Position numbers and translations under genes: made by a program | NCBI RefSeq assembly: GCF_044647545.1 | Contig: NZ_CP172818.1 | DNA from: Escherichia coli | Lineage (GTDB): Bacteria > Pseudomonadota > Gammaproteobacteria > Enterobacterales > Enterobacteriaceae | Reading direction: 5' to 3' (one strand) | Length of the DNA stretch: 64,000 nucleotides | In this document: one piece after another, positions 481 through 49,434 of the stretch | Layout: every line of letters begins with the position of its first letter | Numbering within the stretch: the stretch's first letter is position 1 | Notes under the pieces: model-generated | Database searches by the model: none | Told to the model about the DNA's origin: nothing | The model's input: only the letters and a program-made list of their open reading frames with translations

Positions 481-609
481 TTACTTCTCCGGTTAGTAAG
501 AAATCACGGGAGCCATGCTACCACTGTGATTTTAACCGCTTACTGACATGGCTCACGATGTTGCGCATTGCTTCTGGAAAGGATTTCCAGACGCAGGTCA
601 CGAATTTCC

Positions 610-3600
610 ATAAAACCAGACTGTTTTTTCATAAACACTCATTTACGATGACCCCCATCTCCCGAAAATCAGACAAACCACCATTACCGATAATCCCTAA
701 ACAAACACGAAAATCACCATACCGTTAATTTTTTTTTACAACGTACCATCACACTCAAACCACCCACAATCCACAAACTCGAAATGTCTTACTCATATAT
801 CACCACCCAGCGTTTGTAAACCATAACCAGTTGACGATTCCATTTTCACCATACCCCATTACAAACACCCAAACGAGCCCTCGTCATTTTTCACAAATTA
901 CCCCATATCGCTACGATATTCACCCCTTTACGAAACCCATTCACCCATACCATTTCATTTCAACGTACTGCATTGAAAATAAAAAAACACACCATATTCC
1001 AAATCCAAATCGCCACCCGTAACCCACGTTCCCCAACCATGACCCAACACCTCCAACGGTCCCATCAGCGACTTTATCCGTTAATTACCGTCATCAATTT
1101 CCCGCGTTCTCGCGCCTCTTCCATCGCATACGCCGATGACCCCACATACCCGTGTATTAAAACACCAGTTCCCTACCCCAACCTGATCCTCTTTTAATTA
1201 AATCGTTTGATCGATCATTCGTACAAAAACCCACCCGTGAATACTTCAAATTAAAGATGCCTTTCATACGCAAAACATGCTCACCAACCTCTTAATTTTT
1301 CTCTGTTCCATGATCTCCGTTAATCATCAATTCAACGTGATATTTCTGATGTTTCACTTTACCCACTGTGATTTAACTGATGTAACACCATGATCACGCA
1401 CGCCACCGAACCCACAGACTAACAGTACCACCTCAGAAACCGAGAAAAAGAAAGCATCAAATATTTCACCCCATCATCGAACACCATCGTAACCGACCAC
1501 CACGATAAAACCCCACAATCTCATCCAGGGTCACAAATCGAATCGCTCACATATTTTTATCATACCGCTACGAACAGCGAACAATCATCCGAACCAACGC
1601 CAATCTCACCCAACGCGAACATGCAGAATACAATCGAAACGTGTTCTTCCGCTGCTTTATCCGCCGCGTGCTGAAACTACGTGATTACCAAACACCGTCA
1701 CACCTCCTCCCACCAACAACGCGATCGATTCCTCGATGCTTTCTACCAACGATAACCAAATCGGAGATTATGCCGATCAGAATCCAAATCCCCCGCCGAG
1801 TTCATCCACCAACTATCAATTCCACGTACCACCACATAATTCGTTTTTAAATCACCAAATTAAACCAATCACCTACACAATTAACGACGATGATCTGAAA
1901 TTCATCCACACTCCCATTCCGCAATACAAAAAAAAAATATACAATAATTTTATACTTATTTCCATGATTTTCACCTTTTAATTCTCATCCCTCCTTTAAA
2001 CATATGTACACACGCTATTATTTAATTTGATTAATGTTCGTTTATTTTTCGATAATATTGATTAGATCTACCTACGAGCGTAAACCATATACCCAAGATT
2101 ATTTAATCATGAAACGTTAATAACTCATCTAATGAAATCTTTTTAACTGTTTCTTACCAAGTCACCATACCCCAATATTCATACCTATTTTTACCCCTCG
2201 AACCATTCTAACATCTTTCGATGAAAAGATAAAAAAGTTTCGTCCTATATTCGGGTTTGATAATCCGCGACGGCTTTTTCATATTACCACGTTAACCTTC
2301 ATTCCCGTCGCACCTACGCAATAATGTCCGGCGAATTCATCGTTATAAATTCGTCATTGCAGATAATAATGCGTTCGTTACCACTTTAACCAACGGTATA
2401 CCTCCGTGATCACGTCATCAATCCACGTAATGTTCATCAAAATCCTCCTCCGCTGTTCCACCTGTCTCCAACGACGCAGATTTCTTTCGATTTCTCCGTT
2501 CACAGAAATCCATCAATATTCATGCTTCCTGTTATCAACCATTCACCCACGCAGAGAAAGCCGCTGATTACCCCAACGAGATTCGCATCCAACATCGCTC
2601 CCATTCCACGGGCTCCGCACTGTAAACCACCAATCACCATCATCTTGATTTAATCTTACGTACTTTTCCACTTTCTACGATGTCTCCCGTTCTCGCCGCA
2701 CAAATTCAACCCTCGACCTCATCCGTATATCTAACTGATTCCACATCCAACTAATTTCCATCGCAAAAAATGCATTACCATAAAACCTGATCGTTTTTCC
2801 GCCCGCAATGTTATTTACTCCGTATAACCCGTTCAACACAGATAACAAACAAAATCACCATTCTCTAATCTTCCCCCCCAAAAATCGTTTTTTATACCTT
2901 CACGCACTGCTCGACGTGATATTCCGTCCACCCACCTTCTTCATATTCCCGTCCATCCTGTTTTTTCCAGAATCCCCCGCGATACCGACCACACGATACC
3001 GTCTTACCCATTCTTTCGACCAGACGATGAAGCTATTACGCACTTTATCGCGTACACTCTCCTTCTACCTTCCACCGACTTTCTAGAAACATTCACAATC
3101 ACCATGTGTTGTTCTACGTACCGTCCCCACCCTCGACATCAGAAAAAGTTTTTTATATACCATTTTTTCGAATCACTTCGTTATTCATACTCCCCACCTT
3201 TCTCATCACCACAACCGAAATTACCCGTTATTACCAACTCGATCACAAAATGATAATTTCTCTATATATTTACCTCTTCGCTTAGATTTCCCAAAATGAT
3301 ACCTTTACGATTCATATTTCCACCCACTAATATCACATCTTACATCCTTTCTAATAATTCACCACAACCAACCAATCCGACCATACAATAATATTTTACC
3401 AAATTTAAATTTCATAAACAATATTTTAGATAATAGACCCGTAATTTTTATATAAACATCGAAATTTTTATTCATAAATTCACTTTTATAAAAATTAATA
3501 TATTTTCCACCATGCAAACAATCTTATTTTTCTTCACCACAAGCCAAATGGAATATCTTTTTAATTTATTCATTCGATAAGATGTTTTTTCTCATATTCG

Positions 3601-4300
3601 TTTCAACCACCGTAATATCAAAAAACCGAGCAAATACGCCAGCAACCCGGGCATTCATCTCACTCTCTTCACCACCATAAAACCATCCATACCCTCCGAA
3701 TCCTACCAATTCCCACCACGACATCCAATTACCCATACAAATTTTTAAACCTAACTCATATCCCAACGAATTAATTTATCCACAACCGGAAAATCCCGAA
3801 TCGATTCCCCTTTCAACTCCCCTGTATTAATTTTTACATAACGCTTTCGATTTACCACGTCCGCCAATAATACCAGATTAACTCCCGATTCCCCCCCGCA
3901 ATTTTCAACATCCTCACCCCCCAGGAAAAACCAACAAACCCATCCACAACGACCACATCCCCTTAACCCCACACCCATTATCTCTTCATCCTCATCATTT
4001 CCCGACACACACAACTCTTTCAGCCAAACTTTTCTTCATCCCCACCAAGATTTTCTTATCATATACGATACAATTCCTCGACCCCTTTTAACAACTACGG
4101 TAAAACCACCCCGATCCCCTCATACCCAAAATCAACCACAATCAAACAATCTCACTTTTTCCATCCCTCTTTCCACATGCAAAACCTTTCCACCACGAAA
4201 ACACAGACTTTCAAACGATTTTTCACTCAAGAAAACGCTTTCTCCACATTTTTTCCAACACACACACACATTCAATATTGATTATCTTATTGCCACAAAA
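610..4300. other. Anomalous ORF-free, G-depleted (+ strand) block of ~3.7 kb between pepE and rluF; identity unknown
   Basis: Six-frame track shows only ORFs of 92 codons or fewer here; hand counts of several 60-nt lines give 2-7 G per 60 nt versus ~15 per 60 in flanks; A and C dominate. Boundaries approximate (left ~605-650, right ~4270-4310). Confidence 0.6.
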
Positions 4301-4422
4301 TTATCTATTTCCGGATACTTCTGTGATAAAAGCGGGCAGATCACATTAATTTCACGTTGCCTCATAACCCTTTTTTATCAACCCAAGAGGTACGGTATAT
4401 TCCGCGTTTTACAGGAGAATTT

Positions 4423-5358
4423 ATGCTGCCCGACTCATCAGTCCGTTTAAATAAATACATCAGCGAAAGCGGAATTTGCTCACGCCGCGAAGCGGATCGC
4501 TATATCGAGCAAGGCAATGTGTTCCTTAATGGCAAGCGAGCCACCATTGGCGATCAGGTGAAACCCGGCGACGTTGTGAAAGTAAACGGTCAGTTGATTG
4601 AGCCTCGGGAAGCCGAAGATTTGGTACTTATCGCCCTGAACAAGCCCGTCGGTATTGTCAGCACCACCGAAGATGGCGAGCGCGATAACATTGTCGATTT
4701 CGTTAACCACAGCAAACGCGTGTTCCCGATTGGCCGCCTGGATAAAGATTCCCAGGGGCTGATTTTCCTCACCAATCACGGCGATCTGGTGAATAAGATC
4801 CTCCGTGCGGGTAACGATCATGAGAAAGAGTATCTGGTGACGGTTGATAAACCGATTACCGATGAATTTATTCGTGGTATGGGGGCGGGAGTACCGATCC
4901 TCGGGACGGTAACTAAAAAGTGCAAAGTCAAAAAAGAAGCACCGTTTGTCTTCCGCATTACCCTGGTGCAGGGGCTGAACCGTCAGATTCGTCGCATGTG
5001 CGAGCACTTTGGTTACGAAGTGAAAAAGCTGGAACGTACGCGCATTATGAACGTCAGCTTAAGCGGCATTCCGCTGGGTGAGTGGCGCGATTTAACCGAC
5101 GATGAGTTAATCGATCTCTTTAAGCTCATTGAAAATTCCTCTTCCGAGGCAAAACCTAAAGCGAAGGCCAAACCGAAAACGGTAGGCATCAAACGTCCAG
5201 TCGTTAAGATGGAAAAAACGGTGGAAAAAGGCGGTCGCCCGGCGTCCAACGGTAAGCGTTTTACCTCGCCGGGGCGTAAAAAGAAGGGGGATCAGCGCCT
5301 GCCGCGCGTCGACGTATTTGCTGACCAGCTAAATGACGCCTCAGGATCCGGTTTATAA
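4423..5358 (+). CDS. rluF: 23S rRNA pseudouridine synthase RluF (S4 domain plus pseudouridine synthase domain)
   Basis: ORF 4357-5358; protein [45 protein letters not shown]... from ATG 4423. Frame as read here is 311 codons and overlaps yjbD; from memory K-12 RluF is 290 aa, so the 3' end is uncertain. Confidence 0.85.
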
Positions 5359-5564
5359 GCCTGCTTTTTCTTCAATTGGCGGGCTTTTTTCGCTTCAGCC
5401 TCACGCTCGACCATTAATTTATCGATGTACTCTTTCTTAATGCTGTTAGTTTCGGAGTTGGTCAGTACGCGACCATGCGCAATCCGCGCCCGATCCAGCA
5501 GTGTTTTAAGTTCACGCTGCTCGCGTTCAGTCATCTCTTTTTGGGTAATACGGGGGAGTGCCAT
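5292..5564 (-). CDS. yjbD: Small conserved protein YjbD (DUF3811)
   Basis: 90-aa [37 protein letters not shown]...; position between rluF and lysC. Confidence 0.8.
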
Positions 5565-5815
5565 GATGGTGCCCTCAGTGAGCCAGAGAGTTCAGTGTAC
5601 GGGAATTCGTTTGCGAGCAGAACTGATAATATTCATTTTGCCTTCTCTTAACTATTTATCTCTTTCGATAATTAGCGATAAATACAGATAAAAATTTAAC
5701 GCAAATTATTATCCGATAAAGACGCTGGTTAACAGAGTACAGGCTCGTTTATTGATGAGCATAGTGACAAGAAAATCAATACGGCCCGAAATATAGCTTC
5801 CAGGCCATACAGTAT

Positions 5816-9339: not shown

Positions 9340-9355
9340 TTAAAAACCTTAATAA

Positions 9356-36258: not shown

Positions 36259-37674
36259 ATGGCAGGAAATAAACCCTTCAACAAACAGCAGGCTGAACCC
36301 CGCGAACGCGATCCACAAGTTGCCGGGCTGAAAGTGCCTCCGCACTCGATCGAAGCGGAGCAGTCGGTGTTGGGCGGTTTAATGCTGGATAACGAACGCT
36401 GGGACGATGTAGCCGAGCGTGTGGTGGCAGACGATTTTTACACCCGCCCACACCGTCATATCTTTACTGAAATGGCGCGTTTACAGGAAAGCGGTAGTCC
36501 TATCGATCTGATTACCCTTGCGGAATCGCTGGAACGCCAGGGGCAACTTGATAGCGTCGGTGGTTTCGCTTATCTGGCGGAGCTGTCAAAAAATACGCCA
36601 AGTGCGGCGAACATCAGTGCTTATGCTGACATCGTGCGTGAACGTGCCGTTGTTCGCGAGATGATTTCGGTTGCGAATGAGATTGCCGAAGCCGGTTTTG
36701 ATCCGCAGGGGCGTACCAGCGAAGATCTGCTGGACCTGGCTGAATCCCGCGTCTTTAAAATTGCCGAAAGTCGTGCAAACAAAGACGAAGGGCCGAAGAA
36801 CATCGCCGATGTGCTCGACGCCACGGTGGCGCGTATTGAGCAGTTGTTTCAGCAGCCACACGATGGCGTTACCGGGGTAAACACCGGTTATGACGATCTC
36901 AACAAAAAAACCGCTGGCTTGCAGCCGTCGGATTTGATCATCGTCGCCGCGCGTCCGTCGATGGGTAAAACAACATTTGCGATGAACCTCGTTGAAAACG
37001 CGGCGATGTTGCAGGATAAACCAGTACTTATCTTCTCACTGGAGATGCCATCAGAACAGATTATGATGCGTTCTTTGGCGTCGCTGTCGCGCGTTGACCA
37101 GACTAAAATCCGTACCGGGCAGCTCGATGATGAAGACTGGGCACGTATTTCCGGCACCATGGGTATTTTGCTCGAAAAACGTAATATCTATATCGATGAT
37201 TCCTCCGGCCTGACGCCAACGGAAGTGCGTTCCCGCGCGCGCCGTATTGCCCGTGAACACGGCGGCATCGGGCTTATCATGATCGACTACCTGCAACTGA
37301 TGCGCGTACCGGCGCTTTCCGATAACCGTACGCTGGAAATTGCAGAAATCTCCCGCTCGCTGAAAGCACTGGCGAAAGAACTGAACGTGCCGGTGGTGGC
37401 GCTGTCCCAGTTGAACCGTTCTCTGGAACAACGTGCCGACAAACGCCCGGTCAACTCCGACCTGCGTGAATCTGGCTCTATCGAGCAGGATGCGGACTTG
37501 ATCATGTTTATCTATCGTGATGAGGTGTATCACGAAAACAGTGATTTAAAAGGCATCGCGGAAATTATTATCGGTAAACAACGTAACGGCCCAATCGGGA
37601 CGGTACGCCTGACCTTTAACGGTCAATGGTCGCGCTTCGACAACTATGCGGGGCCGCAGTACGACGACGAATAA
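36259..37674 (+). CDS. dnaB: Replicative DNA helicase DnaB
   Basis: 471-aa ORF MAGNKPFNKQQAEPRERDPQVAGLKVPPHSIEAEQSVLGGLMLDNERWDDV... Confidence 0.98.
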   Translation: MAGNKPFNKQQAEPRERDPQVAGLKVPPHSIEAEQSVLGGLMLDNERWDDVAERVVADDFYTRPHRHIFTEMARLQESGSPIDLITLAESLERQGQLDSVGGFAYLAELSKNTPSAANISAYADIVRERAVVREMISVANEIAEAGFDPQGRTSEDLLDLAESRVFKIAESRANKDEGPKNIADVLDATVARIEQLFQQPHDGVTGVNTGYDDLNKKTAGLQPSDLIIVAARPSMGKTTFAMNLVENAAMLQDKPVLIFSLEMPSEQIMMRSLASLSRVDQTKIRTGQLDDEDWARISGTMGILLEKRNIYIDDSSGLTPTEVRSRARRIAREHGGIGLIMIDYLQLMRVPALSDNRTLEIAEISRSLKALAKELNVPVVALSQLNRSLEQRADKRPVNSDLRESGSIEQDADLIMFIYRDEVYHENSDLKGIAEIIIGKQRNGPIGTVRLTFNGQWSRFDNYAGPQYDDE

Positions 37675-37726
37675 TAATTATTTTATGAATTAGGTAATTA
37701 AAGCAAACACTTATCAAGGAACACAA

Positions 37727-38806
37727 ATGCAAGCGGCAACTGTTGTGATTAACCGCCGCGCTCTGCGACACAACCTGCAACGTCTTCGTGAACTGGCACC
37801 TGCCAGTAAAATGGTTGCGGTGGTGAAAGCGAACGCTTATGGTCACGGTCTTCTTGAGACCGCGCGAACGCTCCCCGATGCTGACGCCTTTGGCGTAGCC
37901 CGTCTCGAAGAAGCTCTGCGACTGCGTGCGGGGGGAATCACCAAACCTGTACTGTTACTCGAAGGCTTTTTTGATGCCAGAGATCTGCCGACGATTTCTG
38001 CGCAACATTTTCATACCGCCGTGCATAACGAAGAACAGCTGGCTGCGCTGGAAGAGGCTAGCCTGGACGAGCCGGTTACCGTCTGGATGAAACTCGATAC
38101 CGGTATGCACCGTCTGGGCGTAAGGCCGGAACAGGCTGAGGCGTTTTATCATCGCCTGACCCAGTGTAAAAACGTTCGTCAGCCGGTGAATATCGTCAGC
38201 CATTTTGCGCGCGCGGATGAACCAAAATGCGGCGCAACCGAGAAACAACTCGCTATCTTTAATACCTTTTGCGAAGGCAAACCAGGTCAACGTTCCATTG
38301 CCGCATCGGGTGGCATTCTGCTGTGGCCACAGTCGCATTTTGACTGGGTGCGCCCGGGCATCATTCTTTACGGCGTCTCGCCGCTGGAAGATCGTTCCAC
38401 CGGTGCCGATTTTGGCTGTCAGCCAGTGATGTCACTAACCTCCAGCCTGATTGCCGTGCGTGAGCACAAAGCCGGAGAGCCTGTCGGTTATGGTGGAACC
38501 TGGGTAAGCGAACGTGATACCCGCCTGGGCGTAGTCGCGATGGGTTATGGCGATGGTTATCCGCGCGCCGCGCCGTCCGGTACGCCAGTGCTGGTGAACG
38601 GTCGCGAAGTGCCGATTGTCGGGCGAGTCGCGATGGATATGATCTGCGTCGACTTAGGTCCACAGGCGCAGGATAAAGCCGGGGACCCGGTCATTTTATG
38701 GGGCGAAGGTTTGCCCGTAGAACGTATCGCTGAAATGACGAAAGTAAGCGCTTACGAACTTATCACGCGCCTGACTTCAAGGGTCGCGATGAAATACGTG
38801 GATTAA
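37727..38806 (+). CDS. alr: Alanine racemase (biosynthetic)
   Basis: 359-aa [44 protein letters not shown]... Confidence 0.97.
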
Positions 38807-38827
38807 TCGTTCTGTAATATTTGATTG

Positions 38828-38866
38828 TCTGTGCCGGATGCGGCGTGAATGCCTTATCCGGCCAAT
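38828..38866. repeat. REP-like palindromic unit downstream of alr
   Basis: tgccggatgcggcgtgaatgccttatccggcc. Confidence 0.8.
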
Positions 38867-39058
38867 AAAATCCTACCAATTCAATAAGTTGATTTTCTTT
38901 CATGCTCTTATGAAGGTCGTGCCTCTGGCGGATGTACGTTTGTCATGAGTCTCACTCTGTTGCTAATTGCCGTTCGCCCCTGAACATCCACTCGATCTTC
39001 GCCTTCTTCCGGTTTATTGTGTTTTAACCACCTGCCCGTAAACCTGGAGAACCATTGC

Positions 39059-40252
39059 GTGTTTCAAAAAGTTGACGCCTACGCTGGCGACCCGATTCTT
39101 ACGCTTATGGAGCGTTTTAAAGAAGACCCTCGCAGCGACAAAGTGAATTTAAGTATCGGTCTGTACTACAACGAAGACGGAATTATTCCACAACTGAAAG
39201 CCGTGGCGGATGCGGAAGCGCGCCTGAATGCGCAGCCTCATGGCGCTTCGCTTTATTTACCGATGGAAGGGCTTAACAGCTATCGCCATGCCATTGCGCC
39301 GCTGCTGTTTGGTGCCGACCATCCGGTACTGCAACAACAGCGCGTAGCAACCATTCAAACCCTTGGCGGCTCCGGGGCATTGAAAGTGGGCGCGGATTTC
39401 CTGAAACGCTACTTCCCGGAATCAGGCGTCTGGGTCAGCGATCCTACATGGGAAAACCACGTAGCAATATTCGCCGGGGCTGGATTCGAAGTAAGTACTT
39501 ACCCCTGGTATGACGAAGCGACTAACGGCGTGCGCTTTAATGACCTGTTGGCGACGCTGAAAACATTACCTGCCCGCAGTATTGTGTTGCTGCATCCATG
39601 TTGCCACAACCCAACGGGTGCTGATCTCACTAATGACCAATGGGATGCGGTGATTGAAATTCTCAAAGCCCGCGAGCTTATCCCATTTCTTGATATTGCC
39701 TATCAAGGATTTGGTGCTGGTATGGAAGAGGATGCCTACGCCATTCGCGCCATTGCCAGCGCTGGATTACCCGCTCTGGTGAGCAATTCATTCTCGAAAA
39801 TTTTCTCCCTTTACGGCGAGCGCGTCGGCGGACTTTCTGTTCTGTGTGAAGATGCCGAAGCCGCAGACCGCGTACTGGGGCAATTGAAAGCAACAGTTCG
39901 CCGCAACTACTCCAGCCCGCCGAATTTTGGTGCGCAGGTGGTGGCTGCAGTGCTGAATGACGAGGCATTGAAAGCCAGCTGGCTGGCGGAAGTAGAAGAG
40001 ATGCGTACTCGCATTCTGGCAATGCGTCAGGAACTGGTGAAGGTATTAAGCACAGAGATGCCAGAACGCAATTTCGATTATCTGCTTAATCAGCGCGGCA
40101 TGTTCAGTTATACCGGTTTAAGTGCCGCTCAGGTTGACCGACTACGTGAGGAGTTTGGTGTTTATCTCATCGCCAGCGGTCGCATGTGTGTCGCCGGGTT
40201 AAATACGGCAAATGTACAACGTGTAGCAAAGGCGTTTGCTGCGGTAATGTAA
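39059..40252 (+). CDS. tyrB: Aromatic-amino-acid aminotransferase
   Basis: ORF 39017-40252; GTG at 39059 gives (M)[40 protein letters not shown]... (397 aa). Confidence 0.95.
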
Positions 40253-40474
40253 TGCAGGAAAGCAGGCTGGAGTTACCCAGCCTGCAGTGAAATTAAACTG
40301 TCGTCGTTTTCACTCTTTCTTTGTAGATGATTTTTTTGATGCCATCGTTTTACGTGAGGGATAATAAAAGGTTGTCAGTTCTTTTATTGTTAAGTTTATC
40401 CCAATTATCTGGAATTTCTTTCCCTGTTTTTTCGTGTGGAGTAATAATTTCTGCACATCTAACCATTATTAAAT

Positions 40475-41017
40475 TTAATAATAAGTATCGGGTTTGTTAC
40501 GATAGAATATTTCTATATCCTCAAGAATATGCTTTGCCTTATTGCCTGTGACTTTCTGAGATTCAATTATAGTATCGTTAAATTCTAATGTTAAAGAGAA
40601 CTCTTTTTTTCCGCTTTGTGTAAGTTTAACCTTATATTGATTACCAATATCAAATAAAAAGGTCCTGTAATGAGAATAATCACCTTTAACCTCCTCGGCA
40701 AAACAGCAAAGTGTGCAAATATACATACAATCTTTCTTGCCTCTGATTTTGTTAACTAAATCAATAAATGCATGAAAAACTGTACTTGCAATAGAACTTG
40801 ATACTTCTTCTCCAGGTCTACAAAAATCTTTTGCAATTTTTAACTGTGTTTCTATATATAAAAAGAAATCTTTGGCATAAGAAAAATCTTTGGAATAAGA
40901 GATATCTTTATTATTTAGTGCATCTAGCTCAACAGGTAAAGATGTCATTTTGTTGCTATTCACATATGATATATTCATATCATCATCTCCTTCGAGAGTA
41001 ATAAAATTAGTCACCAT
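40475..41017 (-). CDS. Hypothetical protein, AT-rich ORF between tyrB and aphA
   Basis: 180-aa ORF MVTNFITLEGDDDMNISYVNSNKMTSLPVELDALNNK...; AT-rich; no recognisable motif by eye. Confidence 0.5.
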   Translation of the reverse strand: MVTNFITLEGDDDMNISYVNSNKMTSLPVELDALNNKDISYSKDFSYAKDFFLYIETQLKIAKDFCRPGEEVSSSIASTVFHAFIDLVNKIRGKKDCMYICTLCCFAEEVKGDYSHYRTFLFDIGNQYKVKLTQSGKKEFSLTLEFNDTIIESQKVTGNKAKHILEDIEIFYRNKPDTYY

Positions 41018-41189
41018 TGTAGGGTAGGGTTCTGGTCAACCAGAAATCATCTTTATAAACTTCGATTGTTTTTGTAATGCTGTATCATTAAGTTCATTAA
41101 ATCGTACAGCAGATAAATGTTCTATCAAATTTCGCTCATTTGCAGAGGATTCATCATAATAAACGTAAAATTAATGTATCCTTCATTGA

Positions 41190-42092
<903 letters not shown>

Positions 42093-42202
42093 CAGAGCGG
42101 GAGAGCGTGACACTCTCCCGAATGCTGTTTTTTTAATCACACCTTTATCCTTTCTCTGTCTTGCTGCAAACTGATTAAGAGAGTTTTATCAAGGAGCAGC
42201 AC

Positions 42203-42619
42203 ATGTGGTATCAAAAGACGCTCACGCTTAGCGCCAAATCTCGTGGGTTTCATCTGGTAACGGATGAAATTCTGAATCAGCTGGCTGATATGCCGCGCGT
42301 TAACATCGGTTTACTGCATCTGTTGCTGCAACATACCTCCGCCTCTCTGACACTTAATGAGAACTGCGATCCCACCGTACGCCACGACATGGAGCGTTTT
42401 TTCCTCCGCACCGTTCCCGACAACGGAAATTATGAGCATGACTATGAGGGAGCAGACGATATGCCTTCTCATATCAAATCCTCAATGCTGGGAACATCGC
42501 TTGTATTGCCGGTGCATAAAGGGCGTATTCAGACCGGCACCTGGCAAGGCATCTGGCTGGGGGAACATCGCATCCACGGCGGATCGCGTCGCATTATCGC
42601 GACACTACAAGGGGAGTAA
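42203..42619 (+). CDS. yjbQ: UPF0047-family protein YjbQ
   Basis: 138-aa [57 protein letters not shown]... Confidence 0.88.
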
Positions 42620-42622
42620 AAA

Positions 42623-42979
42623 ATGACCATTTCGGAGTTGCTACAATATTGCATGGCAAAACCAGGCGCAGAACAGAGCGTGCATAACGACTGGAAAGCG
42701 ACGCAGATCAAAGTGGAAGATGTACTGTTTGCGATGGTGAAAGAAGTAGAAAATCGCCCGGCGGTTTCGCTGAAAACCAGCCCGGAGCTGGCGGAGCTGC
42801 TACGTCAGCAGCACAGCGATGTGCGTCCAAGCCGCCATCTGAATAAAGCGCACTGGAGCACCGTGTATCTCGACGGTTCGCTGCCGGATTCGCAAATCTA
42901 TTATCTGGTGGATGCGTCTTATCAGCAGGCGGTGAATTTGCTGCCGGAAGAAAAACGTAAATTGCTGGTGCAACTCTGA
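42623..42979 (+). CDS. yjbR: Conserved protein YjbR
   Basis: 118-aa ORF MTISELLQYCMAKPGAEQSVHNDWKATQIKVEDVLFAMVKEV... Confidence 0.85.
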   Translation: MTISELLQYCMAKPGAEQSVHNDWKATQIKVEDVLFAMVKEVENRPAVSLKTSPELAELLRQQHSDVRPSRHLNKAHWSTVYLDGSLPDSQIYYLVDASYQQAVNLLPEEKRKLLVQL

Positions 42980-43013
42980 AAGGAAAAGGCCGCTCAGAAA
43001 GCGGCCTTAACGA

Positions 43014-45836
43014 TTACAGCATCGGCTTGAGGAAGCGTGCCGTATGCGAAGCTTCGCACTCCGCGACGGTTTCTGGCGTTCCGGAGACGAGGATCTCGCC
43101 GCCGCCACTGCCGCCTTCCGGTCCCAGGTCGACAATCCAGTCAGCGGTTTTGATCACGTCGAGATTGTGTTCAATCACCACAATGGTATTGCCCTGATCG
43201 CGCAGTTTATGCAGTACGTCGAGCAGTTGCTGAATATCGGCGAAGTGCAGACCGGTGGTCGGCTCGTCGAGAATATACAGTGTCTGCCCGGTGCCGCGTT
43301 TTGACAGCTCACGCGCCAGCTTCACGCGCTGGGCTTCACCGCCTGAAAGGGTGGTTGCGGACTGCCCCAGGCGAATGTACGTCAGGCCAACGTCCATCAA
43401 CGTTTGCAGCTTACGCGCCAGTGCAGGTACGGCATCAAAGAACTCACGCGCCTCTTCGATGGTCATATCCAGCACTTCGTGGATGGTTTTGCCTTTGTAC
43501 TTAATTTCCAGCGTTTCACGGTTATAGCGTTTACCTTTACACTGGTCGCACGGTACGTAAATGTCCGGCAGGAAGTGCATCTCCACTTTGATCACGCCGT
43601 CGCCCTGACAGGCTTCGCAGCGTCCGCCACGGACGTTAAAGCTGAAACGTCCCGGCGTATAGCCGCGCGCACGGGATTCCGGTACGCCCGCAAACAGTTC
43701 GCGCACAGGCGTAAACACGCCGGTATAGGTCGCTGGGTTAGAACGCGGAGTACGACCAATTGGGCTTTGGTCGATATCGATCACTTTATCGAAATGCTCC
43801 AGTCCCTGAATATCGCGATACGGTGCCGGTTCGGCGATGGTCGCACCATTCAACTGGCGTTGGGCAATCGGGAACAGTGTGTCGTTAATCAGTGTCGATT
43901 TACCGGAACCTGAAACCCCTGTGATGCAGGTAAACAGACCGACTGGCAGCGTTAGCGTCACGTCTTTCAGGTTATTACCGCGTGCACCCGTCAGCTTCAG
44001 CACTTTTTCCGGATTCGCCGGAACGCGTTTCTTCGGCACTTCAATCTTGCGTTTACCGCTCATGTACTGTCCGGTCAACGACTCCGGCACCGCCATAATC
44101 GCTTCCAGTGGACCTTCCGCGACCACTTCACCGCCGTGAACACCCGCACCAGGACCGATATCGATCACATGGTCAGCCGCGCGAATCGCGTCTTCGTCGT
44201 GCTCCACCACAATCACGGTATTACCGAGATCGCGCAGATGGATAAGCGTACCCAACAGGCGCTCGTTATCGCGCTGGTGCAGGCCGATAGACGGCTCATC
44301 CAGCACGTACATAACGCCAACCAGGCCCGCACCAATCTGGCTCGCCAGACGAATACGCTGGGCTTCACCGCCAGAAAGCGTTTCTGCCGAGCGGGAAAGC
44401 GTCAGGTAATTCAGGCCGACGTTAACGAGGAATTTCAAACGATCGCCGATCTCTTTAAGAATTTTTTCCGCAATCTTCGCCCGCTGACCTGCGAGTTTGA
44501 GATTGTTGAAGAATTCCATCGCATGACCAATGCTCATGTCGGAAATGGCGGGCAGCGGCGTATTCTCGACATACACGTGGCGCGCTTCCCGACGCAGACG
44601 CGTCCCTTCGCAGCTGGCGCACGGGCGATTGCTGATGAACTTGGCTAATTCTTCGCGTACCGCGCTGGACTCCGTCTCTTTATAACGGCGCTCCATATTG
44701 TGCAGCACGCCTTCAAACGGATGACGACGAATGGAGGTATCGCCACGATCGTTCATGTATTTGAATTCAATGTTTTCTTTGCCAGAACCGTACAACACCA
44801 CTTTATGCACGTTCGCGCTCAGGCTGCCCCACGGCGCTTCGACGTCGAACTTATAGTGATCTGCCAGCGATTTCAGCATCTGGAAATAATAGAAGTTGCG
44901 GCGATCCCAGCCACGGATCGCACCGCCAGCCAGCGACAGTTCCGGATTCTGGATCACGCGGTCAGGATCGAAATATTGCTGTACGCCAAGGCCGTCGCAG
45001 GTCGGGCAGGCCCCCGCCGGGTTGTTAAACGAAAACAGTCGCGGCTCCAGCTCGCGCATACTGTAACCGCAAATTGGGCAGGCGAAGTTGGCGGAGAACA
45101 GCAGCTCTTCCGCTTTCGGGTCGTCCATATCCGCCACTACCGCGGTACCACCGGAAAGCTCTAGCGCGGTTTCAAACGACTCGGCCAGACGTTGGGTAAG
45201 ATCGTCACGCACCTTGAAGCGATCAACCACCACTTCAATAGTGTGTTTCTTTTGCAGTTCCAGTTTCGGCGGATCGGAAAGATCGCAGACTTCGCCATCA
45301 ATACGAGCACGGATGTAACCTTGGCTTGCCAGGTTCTCCAGCGTTTTGGTGTGTTCGCCTTTGCGCTCTTTAATGATTGGCGCAAGCAGCATCAGACGCT
45401 TGCCTTCCGGCTGTGACAGCACGTTATCCACCATCTGGCTGACGGTTTGCGCCGCCAGCGGGACGTCGTGGTCCGGACAGCGCGGCTCGCCGACGCGGGC
45501 GAACAACAAACGCAAATAGTCGTGGATTTCGGTGATTGTCCCCACCGTAGAACGCGGGTTATGAGACGTTGATTTCTGCTCAATTGAGATGGCAGGAGAA
45601 AGCCCCTCAATATGATCGACGTCCGGCTTTTCCATCAGTGACAGAAACTGCCGCGCGTAGGCGGAAAGGGATTCAACGTAACGGCGCTGCCCTTCGGCAT
45701 ATAAGGTGTCGAAAGCGAGCGAGGATTTGCCAGAACCCGAAAGCCCGGTCACGACAATGAGCTTGTCGCGGGGGATAACGAGGTTGATGTTTTTGAGATT
45801 ATGGGTGCGGGCGCCCCGAACTTCGATCTTATCCAT
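43014..45836 (-). CDS. uvrA: Excinuclease ABC subunit A
   Basis: 940-aa [61 protein letters not shown]...; tandem ABC ATPase modules. Confidence 0.98.
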
Positions 45837-45920
45837 TCACCTTTCCCGGATTAAACGCTTTTTTGCCCGGTGGCATGGTGCTACCGGCGATCACAAACGG
45901 TTAATTATGACACAAATTGA

Positions 45921-45936
45921 CCTGAATGAATATACA
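45921..45936. promoter_or_regulatory. LexA (SOS) box in the divergent uvrA / ssb promoter region
   Basis: ctgaatgaatatacag = reverse complement CTGTATATTCATTCAG, fits CTGT-N8-ACAG. Confidence 0.9.
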
Positions 45937-46090
45937 GTATTGGAATGCATTACCCGGAGTGTTGTGTAACAATGTCTGGCCAGGTTTGTTTCCCGGAACC
46001 GAGGTCACAACATAGTAAAAGCGCTATTGGTAATGGTACAATCGCGCGTTTACACTTATTCAGAACGATTTTTTTTCAGGAGACACGAAC

Positions 46091-46627
46091 ATGGCCAGCA
46101 GAGGCGTAAACAAGGTTATTCTCGTTGGTAATCTGGGTCAGGACCCGGAAGTACGCTACATGCCAAATGGTGGCGCAGTTGCCAACATTACGCTGGCTAC
46201 TTCCGAATCCTGGCGTGACAAAGCGACCGGCGAGATGAAAGAGCAGACTGAATGGCACCGCGTTGTGCTGTTCGGCAAACTGGCAGAAGTAGCCAGCGAA
46301 TATCTGCGTAAAGGTTCTCAGGTTTATATCGAAGGTCAGCTGCGTACCCGCAAATGGACCGATCAATCCGGTCAGGATCGCTACACCACAGAAGTCGTGG
46401 TGAACGTTGGCGGCACCATGCAGATGCTGGGTGGTCGTCAGGGTGGTGGCGCTCCGGCAGGTGGCAATATCGGTGGTGGTCAGCCGCAGGGTGGTTGGGG
46501 TCAGCCTCAGCAGCCGCAGGGTGGCAATCAGTTCAGCGGCGGCGCGCAGTCTCGCCCGCAGCAGTCCGCTCCGGCAGCGCCGTCTAACGAGCCGCCGATG
46601 GACTTTGATGACGATATTCCGTTCTGA
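46091..46627 (+). CDS. ssb: Single-stranded DNA-binding protein
   Basis: 178-aa [70 protein letters not shown]... ending DFDDDIPF. Confidence 0.98.
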
Positions 46628-46689
46628 TTTGTCGTTAAAACAATAGGTTATATTGTTTTAAGGTGGATGATTAAAGCATCTGCCAGCCA

Positions 46690-46719
46690 TAAAAAAGAAG
46701 CCTCCGTTTTGGAGGCTTC
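46690..46719 (-). terminator. Putative intrinsic terminator (reads as terminator for yjcB on the - strand)
   Basis: Stem gaagcctcc / ggaggcttc; on the - strand the hairpin is followed by a T-run. Confidence 0.6.
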
Positions 46720-46725
46720 TACATA

Positions 46726-47007
46726 TCAAGTCAAAATCATTGGCCATTGTGGCGGTGTCTGATTCATCTCTTCTATCATCACCGACTCGATGTTGTGCCA
46801 GATGGCGGTGATATCCGCCATTGTGATGCCAAGCAACCCCATTGCGAACCAGCAGGCAGAAACCACGCCCAGACCGCTGCTGATCACTGCAAGCCCGACA
46901 TAATCAGACCGACGAAAACGGATGTTGAGTGTGCTGGCCAGAAACATCATTACGGCACTAAGAAGTTGCCAGCGAAGAAGAACCACGCCAGTGGTGAGGG
47001 TAGCCAT
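46726..47007 (-). CDS. yjcB: Small inner-membrane protein YjcB
   Basis: ORF 46726-47106; internal start gives MATLTTGVVLLRWQLLSAVMMFLASTLNIRFRRSDYVGLAVISSG... (93 aa). Confidence 0.8.
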   Translation of the reverse strand: MATLTTGVVLLRWQLLSAVMMFLASTLNIRFRRSDYVGLAVISSGLGVVSACWFAMGLLGITMADITAIWHNIESVMIEEMNQTPPQWPMILT

Positions 47008-47436
47008 CAAACAATTCCTCTGAAAAGAGCCGATGCCTCGGACAGCGCGGCGTTGTTCACGGGAGGCGTGATACAATCTGGCTATCGCGGGGCTTGCAGA
47101 ACACAAAAAAGAAACACTCTGTTTGTTTCATTAATTTTGTGAACTATATCACAATTGATTGTTTGTTAGCCAGATTAGGCCGTGACTTTTATTGCCGTAC
47201 AGATTATGTGTTTTTTCAGCGGCATTAAGGGTATATCTTCCCACCGCCTCTGCATTCCTGTAGGAAATTAGTTTTGAATATCAATGAATTATTTTTATTC
47301 AGGTGACGATTAAAAAGGTATCAATTTCAAATCAGGCAAAAGTGCTATTTATACCGTAAGATTTATCTAAAGACGTCGATAACCAGGGTTCTCGCCTTGC
47401 AATGACCGGGTATAAACAGGCAGGAAATTGATAGCA

Positions 47437-49023
47437 ATGAGTCATCGTGCACGACACCAATTACTGGCGTTGCCGGGCATTATCTTTTTAGTTCTCTTTC
47501 CCATCATTCTGTCGCTATGGATTGCCTTCTTTTGGGCAAAATCAGAAGTGAATAATCAGCTCCGAACCTTTGCTCAGCTGGCGTTGGATAAATCTGAGCT
47601 GGTCATTCGTCAGGCAGATTTAGTGAGCGATGCAGCTGAACGCTATCAGGGGCAAGTTTGCACCCCAGCCCATCAAAAGCGAATGTTGAATATTATTCGT
47701 GGCTATCTTTATATTAATGAATTGATCTATGCCCGTGATAACCATTTTTTATGCTCATCGCTGATAGCGCCTGTAAACGGCTATACGATTGCACCGGCCG
47801 ATTATAAGCGTGAACCTAACGTTTCTATCTATTATTACCGCGATACGCCTTTTTTCTCTGGCTATAAAATGACCTATATGCAGCGGGGAAATTATGTGGC
47901 GGTCATCAACCCTCTCTTCTGGAGTGAAGTGATGTCTGATGATCCGACATTGCAATGGGGTGTATATGATACGGTAACGAAAACCTTTTTCTCGTTAAGC
48001 AACGAGGCCTCGGCAGCAACGTTTTCTCCACTGATTCATTTGAAGGATTTAACTGTACAAAGAAATGGCTATTTATATGCGACAGTTTATTCGACAAAAC
48101 GCCCAATTGCGGCCATTGTTGCGACTTCATATCAACGTCTTATAGCGCATTTTTATAATCATCTTATTTTTGCGTTACCCGCCGGTATTTTGGGGAGTCT
48201 TGTTCTGCTATTACTCTGGCTACGTATTCGACAAAACTATTTGTCTCCCAAACGCAAATTGCAACGCGCCCTCGAAAAACATCAACTTTGCCTTTATTAC
48301 CAGCCAATAATCAATATCAAAACAGAAAAATGTATCGGGGCTGAAGCATTGTTACGTTGGCCTGGTGAGCAGGGGCAAGTAATGAATCCGGCAGAGTTTA
48401 TTCCGCTGGCAGAAAAGGAGGGGATGATCGGACAGGTAACTGATTATGTTATTGATAATGTCTTCCGCGATCTGGGCGCATACCTGGCAACACATGCCGA
48501 TCGCTATGTTTCTATTAACCTGTCGGCCTCCGATTTTCATACGTCACGGTTGATAGCGCGAACCAATCAGAAAACAGAGCAATACGCGGTGCGTCCACAG
48601 CAAATTAAATTTGAAGTGACTGAACATGCATTTCTTGATGTCGACAAAATGACACCAATTATTCTGGCTTTCCGCCAGGCTGGTTACGAAGTGGCAATTG
48701 ATGATTTTGGTATTGGCTACTCTAACTTGCATAACCTTAAATCATTGAATGTCGATATTTTGAAAATCGATAAATCGTTTGTTGAGACGCTGACCACCCA
48801 TAAAACCAGTCATTTGATTGCGGAACACATCATCGAGCTGGCGCACAGTCTGGGGTTAAAAACGATCGCTGAAGGCGTCGAAACTGAGGAACAGGTTAAC
48901 TGGCTGCGCAAACGCGGCGTGCGCTATTGCCAGGGATGGTTCTTTGCGAAGGCGATGCCGCCGCAGGTGTTTATGCAATGGATGGAGCAATTACCCGCGC
49001 GGGAGTTAACGCGCGGGCAATAA
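47437..49023 (+). CDS. pdeC: c-di-GMP phosphodiesterase (CSS-motif sensor plus EAL domain)
   Basis: ORF 47428-49023 (TTG); ATG at 47437 gives [25 protein letters not shown]...; C-terminal EAL domain motifs (EALLRWP, KIDKSFV). Confidence 0.92.
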
Positions 49024-49025
49024 AA

Positions 49026-49349
49026 CTACAGGCGGTGGCGATAATCGCTTGGAGTGCGATCAAACTGCCGACGGAAAACGCGGGAGAAGGTCTGCTGCGA
49101 GACATAACCCAGGTCCATTGCGATATCAAAAATCGGACGCTCGGTGGTGCGCAACTCAACGGCGGCCAGCAACAGGCGGCGTTGGCGAATGTAATCACCA
49201 AGTGTCTGATGCGTCACCGTGCGGAACATCCGTTGCAGGTACCACTTTGAATAGCCTGATTTTTTTGCGACGACATCAATGTTAAGCGGCTGGTCAATAT
49301 GCTCGTCAATCCATGCGATAAGATCCTGAATAATTTTCTGATGGGACAT
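49026..49349 (-). CDS. soxS: AraC-family superoxide-response activator SoxS
   Basis: 107-aa ORF MSHQKIIQDLIAWIDEHIDQPLNIDVVAKKSGYSKWYLQRMFRTVTHQTLGDYIRQRRLLLAAVELRTTERPIFDIAMDLGYVSQQTFSRVFRRQFDRTPSDYRHRL. Confidence 0.98.
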   Translation of the reverse strand: MSHQKIIQDLIAWIDEHIDQPLNIDVVAKKSGYSKWYLQRMFRTVTHQTLGDYIRQRRLLLAAVELRTTERPIFDIAMDLGYVSQQTFSRVFRRQFDRTPSDYRHRL

Positions 49350-49405
49350 AAATCTGCCTCTTTTCAGTGTTCAGTTCGTTAATTCATCTGTTGGGGAGTA
49401 TAATT

Positions 49406-49423
49406 CCTCAAGTTAACTTGAGG
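49406..49423. promoter_or_regulatory. SoxR binding site within the soxS promoter
   Basis: Perfect 18-bp palindrome CCTCAAGTTAACTTGAGG between divergent soxS and soxR. Confidence 0.9.
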
Positions 49424-49434
49424 TAAAGCGATTT

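Follow-up and report, generated by a model that had tools for sequence, protein, structure and literature searches.

The sorbose (sor, L-sorbose PTS) operon lies between pepE and rluF in approximately half of E. coli genomes. The block described here (positions ~603–4385 of a 64,000-nt stretch of E. coli DNA, referred to as the window) is syntenic with the sor operon at this same locus in 2833 genomes. It shares its locus, its gene order (EIID, EIIC, EIIB, EIIA, SDR oxidoreductase, SorC regulator) and its nucleotide backbone with the sor islands of SMS-3-5, 2014C-3075 and the ST648 strain IMT16316, and is ~99.5% identical to the ST648 allele at non-deleted positions. Unlike these intact islands, the block has lost ~22% of its bases, all of its reading frames are destroyed, and both sorE and the shikimate dehydrogenase gene are absent. 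By synteny and nucleotide homology with the pepE–rluF sor island it is a corrupted copy of the resident operon. A foreign or mobile insertion with junction repeats can be ruled out, as what lies here is the resident operon at its usual location.

A first-pass annotation had drawn attention to homopolymer and dinucleotide tracts within this block. The analysis presented here indicates that these tracts are very probably collapse products of base loss in the resident sor operon, most likely arising as by-products of an error in the sequence data and not as biological repeats.

Structure of the corrupted operon

No intact gene for EIIA–EIID, the reductase/dehydrogenase or the SorC regulator is present in the block. 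Each is represented by a remnant retaining 73–85% of its length and containing hundreds of frameshifts (Table 1). Similarly, no ORF longer than 92 aa is found in the block, and the six longest ORFs gave no Pfam matches. On the left side ~2 kb, comprising the shikimate dehydrogenase gene and most of sorE, is missing at the 577/578 join, where the breakpoint between sorE and pepE (...CTTCTGG/AAAG) is one common to sor-less K-12-like genomes. On the right side the heavy loss of bases fades through a taper zone that contains the K-12-like string TTTTTTATCAACCC.

Table 1. Coordinates of the simple-sequence tracts and operon remnants in the window. Intact forms of the tracts were read from the genomes L001, L002 and L009 (two lineages); the remnants from EIID to the SorC-family regulator were mapped from the genes of L009.
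Feature	Position	Strand	Remarks
T9	729–737	+	intact form TTTTTTTGTT (identical in L001 and L002); G lost, T7 and TT fuse
A7	981–987	+	absent from the first-pass list; intact form AAAGAAGAA; two G lost
A10	1928–1937	+	intact form ACAGGAAAAAAGAAATA; three G lost; A6-G-AAA plus neighbouring A
C7	2873–2879	+	intact form CCTGCGCGCCC, in L001 CCGGCGCGCCC; T/G and G lost
C7	3891–3897	+	intact form GCCCCGCCTGCGGC
C6	3917–3922	+	intact form CACCGCGCGGCCCC
(AC)4	4005–4012		absent from the first-pass list; found on recount
(AC)6A	4258–4270	+	A/C skeleton of intact form GCGTAGTAGTCATCAGCACAGGTGTGCAGCGATTC, a 35-nt stretch, all G and T lost
Corrupted sor (L-sorbose PTS) operon	603–4385		4829 nt in clonal relatives, 3783 nt here; heavy-loss core 603–4275
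sorE 5′-end remnant (55 nt)	578–632	−	joins the pepE upstream region directly at 577/578
EIID (sorM-like) gene remnant	669–1311	−	78% of length kept, frame destroyed
EIIC (sorA-like) gene remnant	1320–1965	−	81% kept
EIIB gene remnant	2022–2437	−	84% kept
EIIA gene remnant	2437–2781	−	85% kept
SDR oxidoreductase gene remnant	2790–3415	−	78% kept
SorC-family regulator gene remnant	3468–4163	−	73% kept
Taper zone	4275–4385		G loss 50% then 33%; ends ~38 nt short of the rluF start codon (4423)

The sequence on either side of the block is near-identical to that of clonal relatives. Positions 1–577 and 4400–5715 match L009, a clonal ST648-type relative with an intact operon, save for one small deletion, and positions 5815–53882 differ from IMT16316 by 7 mismatches. 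Clone D i14 (CP002212) has matching ORF lengths but was rejected as the source at 97–98.6% identity. Small deletions at low-complexity or hairpin (terminator) sites make up most of what separates the rest of the window from its clonal relatives, with 12 indel events vs 7 mismatches, and this profile is that of long-read-type errors. Small deletions lie at 5290, 9340, 13915, 14453/14458, 53595 and 53622. Polishing towards the majority of E. coli genomes is unsupported as the cause of these small deletions, since the forms without them are found in other lineages. In both rluF and psiE the stop codon has been lost to smaller deletions of this record. The aberrant 311-aa RluF is not on record.

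The block itself is unique to one record, being absent from clonal relatives and from the other databases searched. No match of greater than 80% identity to the block was found among E. coli complete genomes, and neither the GTDB representative genomes nor the JGI metagenomes contain exact strings from it.

Origin of the simple-sequence tracts

On recounting, five of the six coordinates first assigned to the tracts (T9, A10, the C7 at 3891–3897, C6 and (AC)6A) were found to be correct. The sixth, a C7 placed at 2913–2919, in fact reads GACGTGA, and the true C7 is located 40 nt to the left. The lengths given for T9, A10, C7, C6 and (AC)6A stand. Tandem Repeats Finder (minimum score 30) did not report any of the listed tracts, all being too short for it. 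The first-pass statement that there is no obvious G-quadruplex array also holds, as the motif (G3+N1-7)x4 is absent from the block, from the rest of the window and from the intact operon.

The alignment shows directly the collapse of G- or T-interrupted runs into tracts. In L001, L002 and L009 the corresponding sites are interrupted by G or T and not repetitive, and none of the tracts is present in these intact operons. Loss of an interrupting G or T fuses the neighbouring runs into a longer homopolymer, and dropping all G and T from an A/C-rich stretch leaves an (AC)n repeat.

A homopolymer census shows the tracts to be commoner in the block than in the flanking native sequence. Runs of at least 6 nt occur at 4.5 per kb in the block (17 in 3.78 kb) vs 1.15 per kb elsewhere in the window (69 in 60.2 kb), and runs of at least 8 nt at 0.53 vs 0.05 per kb (2 and 3 runs, respectively). 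Only one 6-unit dinucleotide repeat exists in the whole 64 kb, and it lies inside the block. Composition-matched shuffles of the block gave 6.2 runs of at least 6 nt vs the 17 observed. For runs of at least 6, 7, 8 and 9 nt the intact operon contains 8, 1, 0 and 0, and the block 17, 5, 2 and 2. Random deletion of bases from the intact operon of L009, with each base dropped at its observed rate, gave 13.3 (9–17), 4.4, 2.2 and 1.4 for the same classes, with 1.7 C-runs of at least 6 nt simulated vs 3 observed. The homopolymer census of the block is thus reproduced by base dropout, which explains the excess over the flanks. In the same simulation (AC)n reached 6 units in 0 of 2000 replicates; as uniform rates do not reproduce it, (AC)6 requires a locally far higher loss of G and T, such as that seen at 4100–4275, where 85–88% of G, 47–58% of T and 0% of A are missing.

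The reading implied by the first-pass annotation, in which the tracts represent true simple-sequence contingency loci (phase-variation switches) or hotspots maintained in an island, has almost no chance of being correct. By E. coli standards homopolymers of 9–10 nt and a (CA)6 repeat are long, the block is enriched in them, and T9, A10, C7 and (CA)6 are all within the length range that slips during replication. However, no intact homologue examined contains the tracts, random base loss predicts as many of them as are seen, and their positions are unrelated to gene starts. Neither an intact ORF nor a recognizable promoter surrounds any of them in the block, and the tracts therefore cannot act as phase-variation switches.

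The (CA)n repeat had also been taken to mark the right junction of the block, with composition returning to normal directly after it. The repeat does sit near the point at which composition recovers, and it could be imagined as the integration or recombination scar of an inserted foreign element. Against this, the repeat lies 115 nt inside the damaged zone, and as the damage fades only by ~4385 it is not the junction; base loss continues past it at a falling rate from 4275 to that point, and the first-pass statement on composition is imprecise. Homology to the reference runs straight across the repeat, the intact sequence at the site is not a repeat, and the synteny of the block with the sor operon described above argues against any insertion. 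Next to no credence can be given to the (CA)n as a junction scar.

Spectrum of base loss

Alignment of window positions 578–4420 to L009 gave 3799 matches and 1068 deleted bases, comprising 795 G, 140 T, 121 C and 12 A. Only 24 bases are inserted and ~20 substituted, and the losses take the form of small deletions. Overall the plus strand has lost ~70% of its G, ~10% of its T, ~9–10% of its C and almost no A, leaving a G content of 7–12% of bases. The strand asymmetry is evident from the loss of G (70%) vs that of C (9%).

The loss of bases ignores reading frame. The fraction of G lost at codon positions 1, 2 and 3 is 0.73, 0.73 and 0.65, and codon-aware or selection-shaped loss was rejected on the similarity of these values. 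Loss of G does depend on a context of ~6 bases (offsets −3 to +2). The fraction of isolated G that is kept is 0.75 in CGA and 0.73 in CGT, vs 0.05 in AGC and 0.00 in AGT. G that are kept and G that are lost form clusters (runs-test z = −3.2), and the loss rates drift across the block. Strand asymmetry, context dependence, clustering and drift are what a signal or base-calling process would be expected to produce.

Two further explanations are inconsistent with this spectrum. A G-to-A hypermutation or deaminase signature was rejected, as there are 2 G-to-A changes vs 795 G deletions. Natural pseudogene decay was similarly rejected, as deletions outnumber substitutions by ~50:1 and the flanks show near zero divergence.

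Cause of the base loss

The spectrum is error-like in that indels far exceed substitutions and the loss is frame-blind and dependent on strand and k-mer context. The cause most likely lies in a fault in the production of the sequence record, and not in a change in the DNA of the cell, a step that we infer from the sequence. The bases missing as small deletions are ~70% of plus-strand G and ~10% of T and C, with T loss rising to ~50% near the right end and A left nearly untouched. The source may be a poorly supported stretch with a consensus that draws in effect on a single strand of single-molecule data, or else a miscall of base versus gap column by column. If the base loss is a fault of the record, the tracts would be without function and would be gone on re-sequencing.

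A typical raw long read contains more mismatches and insertions than the block, and we know of no nameable platform or pipeline that yields exactly this pattern, in which loss of G far exceeds that of T and C, loss of T and C far exceeds that of A, and substitutions and insertions are very rare. Neither PacBio dye-channel dropout nor a nanopore 6-mer effect would fit fully, and a literature search on strand-specific deletion artefacts returned no matching description.

The edges of the block share short strings with the sor-less K-12-like haplotype, namely an inserted A at 583, AA at 603–604 and ATCAA at ~4376–4381. These strings are not explained by a single bad read, and are a hint of a distinct natural haplotype or of a consensus mixed from two. 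A somewhat unlikely form of the artefact is a per-column consensus over templates with and without the sor island. These could come from a mixed culture, from cross-sample reads or from polishing guided by homologous genomes, near-ties between base and gap being resolved by base and context. Such a consensus would account for a damaged segment that is almost exactly the segment absent from sor-less genomes, for the blending of ST648 and K-12-like sor-less sequence at both edges, and for a spectrum made up almost purely of deletions. It should, however, affect G and C symmetrically, which the observed strand asymmetry contradicts. In addition, the small deletions outside the block do not correspond to variants of other lineages, and the shikimate dehydrogenase gene and sorE are wholly and not partly missing.

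A fault in the record may also be set against the possibility that the block is real DNA, formed in vivo by targeted, strand-specific, error-prone and processive copying. Here, RNA- or ssDNA-templated (or one-nucleotide-starved repair) synthesis of the plus strand over the sor transcription unit would have skipped most template C, and later A, and the product would have replaced the resident operon; T9, A10, C7 and (CA)6 would then be genuine new slippage-prone sequences made in one step. The strand asymmetry, the confinement to one operon-sized segment and an error rate that rises in one direction fit processive copying, the plus strand is the cDNA strand of the minus-strand sor mRNA, and nothing in the sequence makes such a state lethal. 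Nevertheless this origin is highly improbable. To our knowledge, no polymerase or diversification system gives ~1070 deleted bases with ~20 substitutions; diversity-generating retroelements (DGRs) and deaminase systems yield substitutions (A to N and C to T, respectively). The annotated IMT16316 genes matching positions 5815–53882 are all ordinary chromosomal genes, and an unsystematic look over the genes of the part compared with IMT16316 noticed no reverse transcriptase (53.9–64 kb being viewed by ORFs alone). The damage also runs ~220 nt past the sorC start codon towards rluF, the block occurs in no other genome searched, and the same record carries other deletion-type defects at hairpins and low-complexity sites. 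Should the block nonetheless prove real on re-sequencing, it would represent an unprecedented mutational event.

The tracts themselves are without biological meaning and ought not to be counted as microsatellites, as phase-variation switches or as markers of a junction. More generally, the 3.8-kb sor stretch of this record is unfit for analyses of gene content, pseudogenes or mutation spectra. An abrupt rise in homopolymers, combined with one base being almost missing from one strand, offers a simple signature by which such corruption may be recognized elsewhere.

Comparison with known systems

The block shares with contingency loci the types and lengths of its tracts (T9, A10, C7 and (CA)6). 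Unlike those loci, its tracts are without an intact gene or promoter, without conservation and without a counterpart in homologues. Targeted hypermutation, whether by DGRs or driven by cytidine deaminases, is similarly strand-specific, base-specific and regionally confined; the block differs in consisting of deletions with ~20 substitutions, and in that a template repeat and reverse transcriptase were not seen. The third comparison is with local consensus errors in long-read and hybrid bacterial assemblies, which are indels left over at homopolymers, at hairpins and in stretches of poor coverage. Like these errors, the block is deletion-dominated, frame-blind, context-dependent and confined to a single record, and smaller deletions occur elsewhere in the window. 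It goes beyond the assembly errors that can be cited in having lost 70% of one base over 3.8 kb, with a strict hierarchy of G > T ~ C > A.

Tract composition and origin

The simple-sequence tracts of the block at about 603-4385 are not real as a biological feature; the block is the resident sor operon in corrupted form, and the tracts are secondary to base dropout within it. Almost certainly they are products of sequence collapse, whether the underlying base loss is artefactual or real. As a description the first-pass annotation was largely correct. Recounting recovered four of its homopolymers and the (CA)n in place, but its C7 at 2913-2919 did not stand, the sequence there being GACGTGA, and two tracts were missing from its list (see table).

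Tracts of the block, with the counterpart in intact sor operons
Tract	Position	Intact operon	First-pass position
T9	729-737	TTTTTTTGTT	729-737
A7	981-987	AAAGAAGAA	missing
A10	1928-1937	ACAGGAAAAAAGAAATA	1928-1937
C7	2873-2879	CCTGCGCGCCC	2913-2919
C7	3891-3897	GCCCCGCCTGCGGC	3891-3897
C6	3917-3922	CACCGCGCGGCCCC	3917-3922
(AC)4	4005-4012		missing
(AC)6A	4258-4270	GCGTAGTAGTCATCAGCACAGGTGTGCAGCGATTC	about 4257-4270

A census of runs in the block and the rest of the window showed that the native flanks are not as rich in such tracts, so their enrichment in the block is real. No other dinucleotide repeat in the 64 kb is as long as the (AC)6. None of the listed tracts was reported by Tandem Repeats Finder because they are too short. 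As had been supposed, there is no G-quadruplex array: a search for the motif in the block, elsewhere in the window and in the intact operon was negative.

At the tract sites the intact operons of two lineages, to which every tract was aligned, differ only once, at the first C7, where the E. coli comparison locus L001 has CCGGCGCGCCC. Runs were also counted after simulated random base deletion from the intact operon of L009, a clonal ST648-type relative, at the observed per-base rates, and dropout fully accounts for the homopolymer excess.

Homopolymer runs in the intact L009 operon, after simulated deletion, in the block (3.78 kb) and in the rest of the window (60.2 kb)
Run length	Intact operon	Simulated mean	Block	Rest of window
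at least 6	8	13.3 (95% range 9-17)	17 (4.5 per kb)	69 (1.15 per kb)
at least 7	1	4.4	5	
at least 8	0	2.2	2 (0.53 per kb)	3 (0.05 per kb)
at least 9	0	1.4	2	

Removing all G and T from an intact 35-nt stretch leaves (AC)6A, and this stretch lies in a zone of 85-88% G loss and 47-58% T loss. Under the uniform-rate simulation six AC units arose in 0 of 2000 replicates; the (AC)6 requires a locally intensified loss of G and T. The suggestion that the (CA)n marks the right junction fails, as homology to the operon runs on through it and G loss tapers from 50% to 33% before ending at about 4385.

Identity of the block

Plus-strand G falls to 7-12% at about 600-4300, against 22-30% elsewhere. The window opens in pepE, on the minus strand, whose start codon is at 481, and the rluF start lies at 4423; among 5426 complete E. 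coli genomes, 2833 have the L-sorbose PTS (sor) operon between these genes. Its alignment to the block is unusual: gaps open hundreds of times but mismatches are few, and 4829 nt are reduced to 3783 nt. Alignment of 578-4420 to L009 gave 3799 matches, deletion of 795 G, 140 T, 121 C and 12 A, 24 inserted bases and about 20 substitutions. The EIID, EIIC, EIIB, EIIA, SDR oxidoreductase and SorC genes are shortened to 73-85% of their length and have all lost their reading frames, and the longest ORFs of the block have no Pfam match. Shikimate dehydrogenase is absent and sorE is reduced to 55 nt, with a junction at 577/578.

Flanking sequence

Identity to L009 is 100% over 1-577, and over 4400-5715 it is broken only by one small deletion at 5290. 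From 5815 to 53882 the window has 7 mismatches to the ST648 strain IMT16316, 6 of them within one 240-nt patch (33452-33689, upstream and 5' region of dusA), apparently a small recombined segment. More distant E. coli differ from the flanks at third codon positions, and none of the compared flank genes is frameshifted; together with the lineage identity, this indicates that the surrounding sequence is natural and of good quality.

Outside the block 12 indel events and 7 mismatches separate the window from its clonal relatives. SNPs are few, and nearly all the small differences are losses of T, C or G; the deletions are found in this window alone, and low-complexity or hairpin sites are affected at 5290, 9340, 13915-13918, 14453/14458, 53595 and 53622. 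At the convergent ends of rluF and yjbD (5286-5295) four bases are lost (GGGCGTTAATCAG to GGGGATCAG), and with them the rluF stop codon; the ORF continues to 5358, overlapping yjbD, and encodes 311 aa instead of 290, an exact protein absent from a large protein collection. One T is missing directly after the pgi stop codon at 9340 (TTT to TT), and the intergenic sequence upstream of psiE lacks five bases in a T/G-rich stretch (13915-13918). psiE has lost its stop codon through two single-base deletions (14453 and 14458; a C and the T of TAA), and its product ends not in ...SKRLKRE but in a different sequence (16 residues, not shown); this 3' end is intact in other lineages (L002, L012, L018). 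A 6-nt deletion directly follows the yjcE stop codon at 53595, and a 12-nt deletion at 53622-53623 removes the 3' half of a terminator hairpin (AAAAGGTGCAGTACATCGCACCTTTTT to AAAAGGTGCAGTCTT), the yjcE CDS itself being that of IMT16316. The window's only other A9 (32332-32340, and 32343) is created by the lack of a T relative to IMT16316 (GAAAAAATAAAGG to GAAAAAAAAAGG), with an extra A 5 nt further on; it lies inside a DUF2713-family gene whose 334-aa ORF is still open.

Between yjbD and lysC (5716-5814) the clonal relatives whose junction was retrieved (L004, L005, L009, L010 and IMT16316) carry a prophage, its genes including Mor, holin and P2-like tail genes. The window has an empty site there, and this includes about 100 nt that do not occur at their prophage junctions. 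The plus strand is A-poor (12-15%) and T-rich at 50500-53000 and 61000-63000, where long ORFs are intact: the membrane transporters ghxP and yjcE in the former, within 33690-53594 that shows no differences from IMT16316, and ORFs of 318 and 560 aa in the latter. These regions appear to have ordinary membrane-protein composition and not to be a second dropout block. Low GC (32-36%) at 22500-24000, 32000-33500 and 40500-41000 corresponds to a SopA-family gene, the DUF2713-family gene and an intergenic/small-ORF region upstream of aphA, respectively, all three also present in ST648 relatives.

Edges of the block and cause of the base loss

Both edges share short strings with the sor-less K-12-like haplotype, namely CTTCTGG|AAAG at the breakpoint, an A inserted at 583, AA at 603-604 and ATCAA at about 4376-4381. 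The edges could come from a distinct natural haplotype without sorE; no collection genome matches either edge exactly. Alternatively, as one form of artefact, templates that carry the island and templates that lack it could have been merged into one consensus, which would explain why the damaged segment is the one missing from sor-less genomes but would leave both the G/C asymmetry and the total absence of sorE unexplained. In sor-less K-12-like genomes the short spacer between pepE and rluF begins on its left at the same breakpoint as that at 577/578, and the 30 nt that follow are similar to the 5' end of sorE as well as to that spacer (E24377A locus L003, 1535-1600), which suggests that the K-12-like spacer is itself what a deleted sor island left behind.

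G loss ignores codon position (0.73, 0.73 and 0.65 at positions 1, 2 and 3) and is strongly asymmetric, 70% of G being lost against 9% of C. Isolated G is kept at 0.75 in CGA and 0.73 in CGT, against 0.05 in AGC and 0.00 in AGT; the context effect is significant over offsets -3 to +2, kept and lost G are clustered along the sequence (runs-test z = -3.2), and loss rates drift along the block. This is how a signal, base-calling or consensus process behaves when it works on a single strand. The rest of the window, where indels outnumber mismatches, points the same way, as does the failure to find the collapsed sequence in other complete E. coli genomes, GTDB representatives or JGI metagenomes. 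We infer that the base loss is very probably a data artefact, its sub-types included, although the block is unlike a typical raw-read profile in its hierarchy of G > T and C > A and its scarcity of mismatches and insertions.

A real, targeted, strand-specific deletion event would be remarkable if true, but is highly improbable. As the flanks have near-zero substitutions relative to clonal relatives, such an event would have had to take about 1070 bases out of 4.8 kb over a time in which the other 58 kb stayed almost unchanged, and we know of no mutational system, natural or engineered, that gives such a deletion spectrum. DGRs and deaminases produce substitutions, whereas the changes in the block are deletions.
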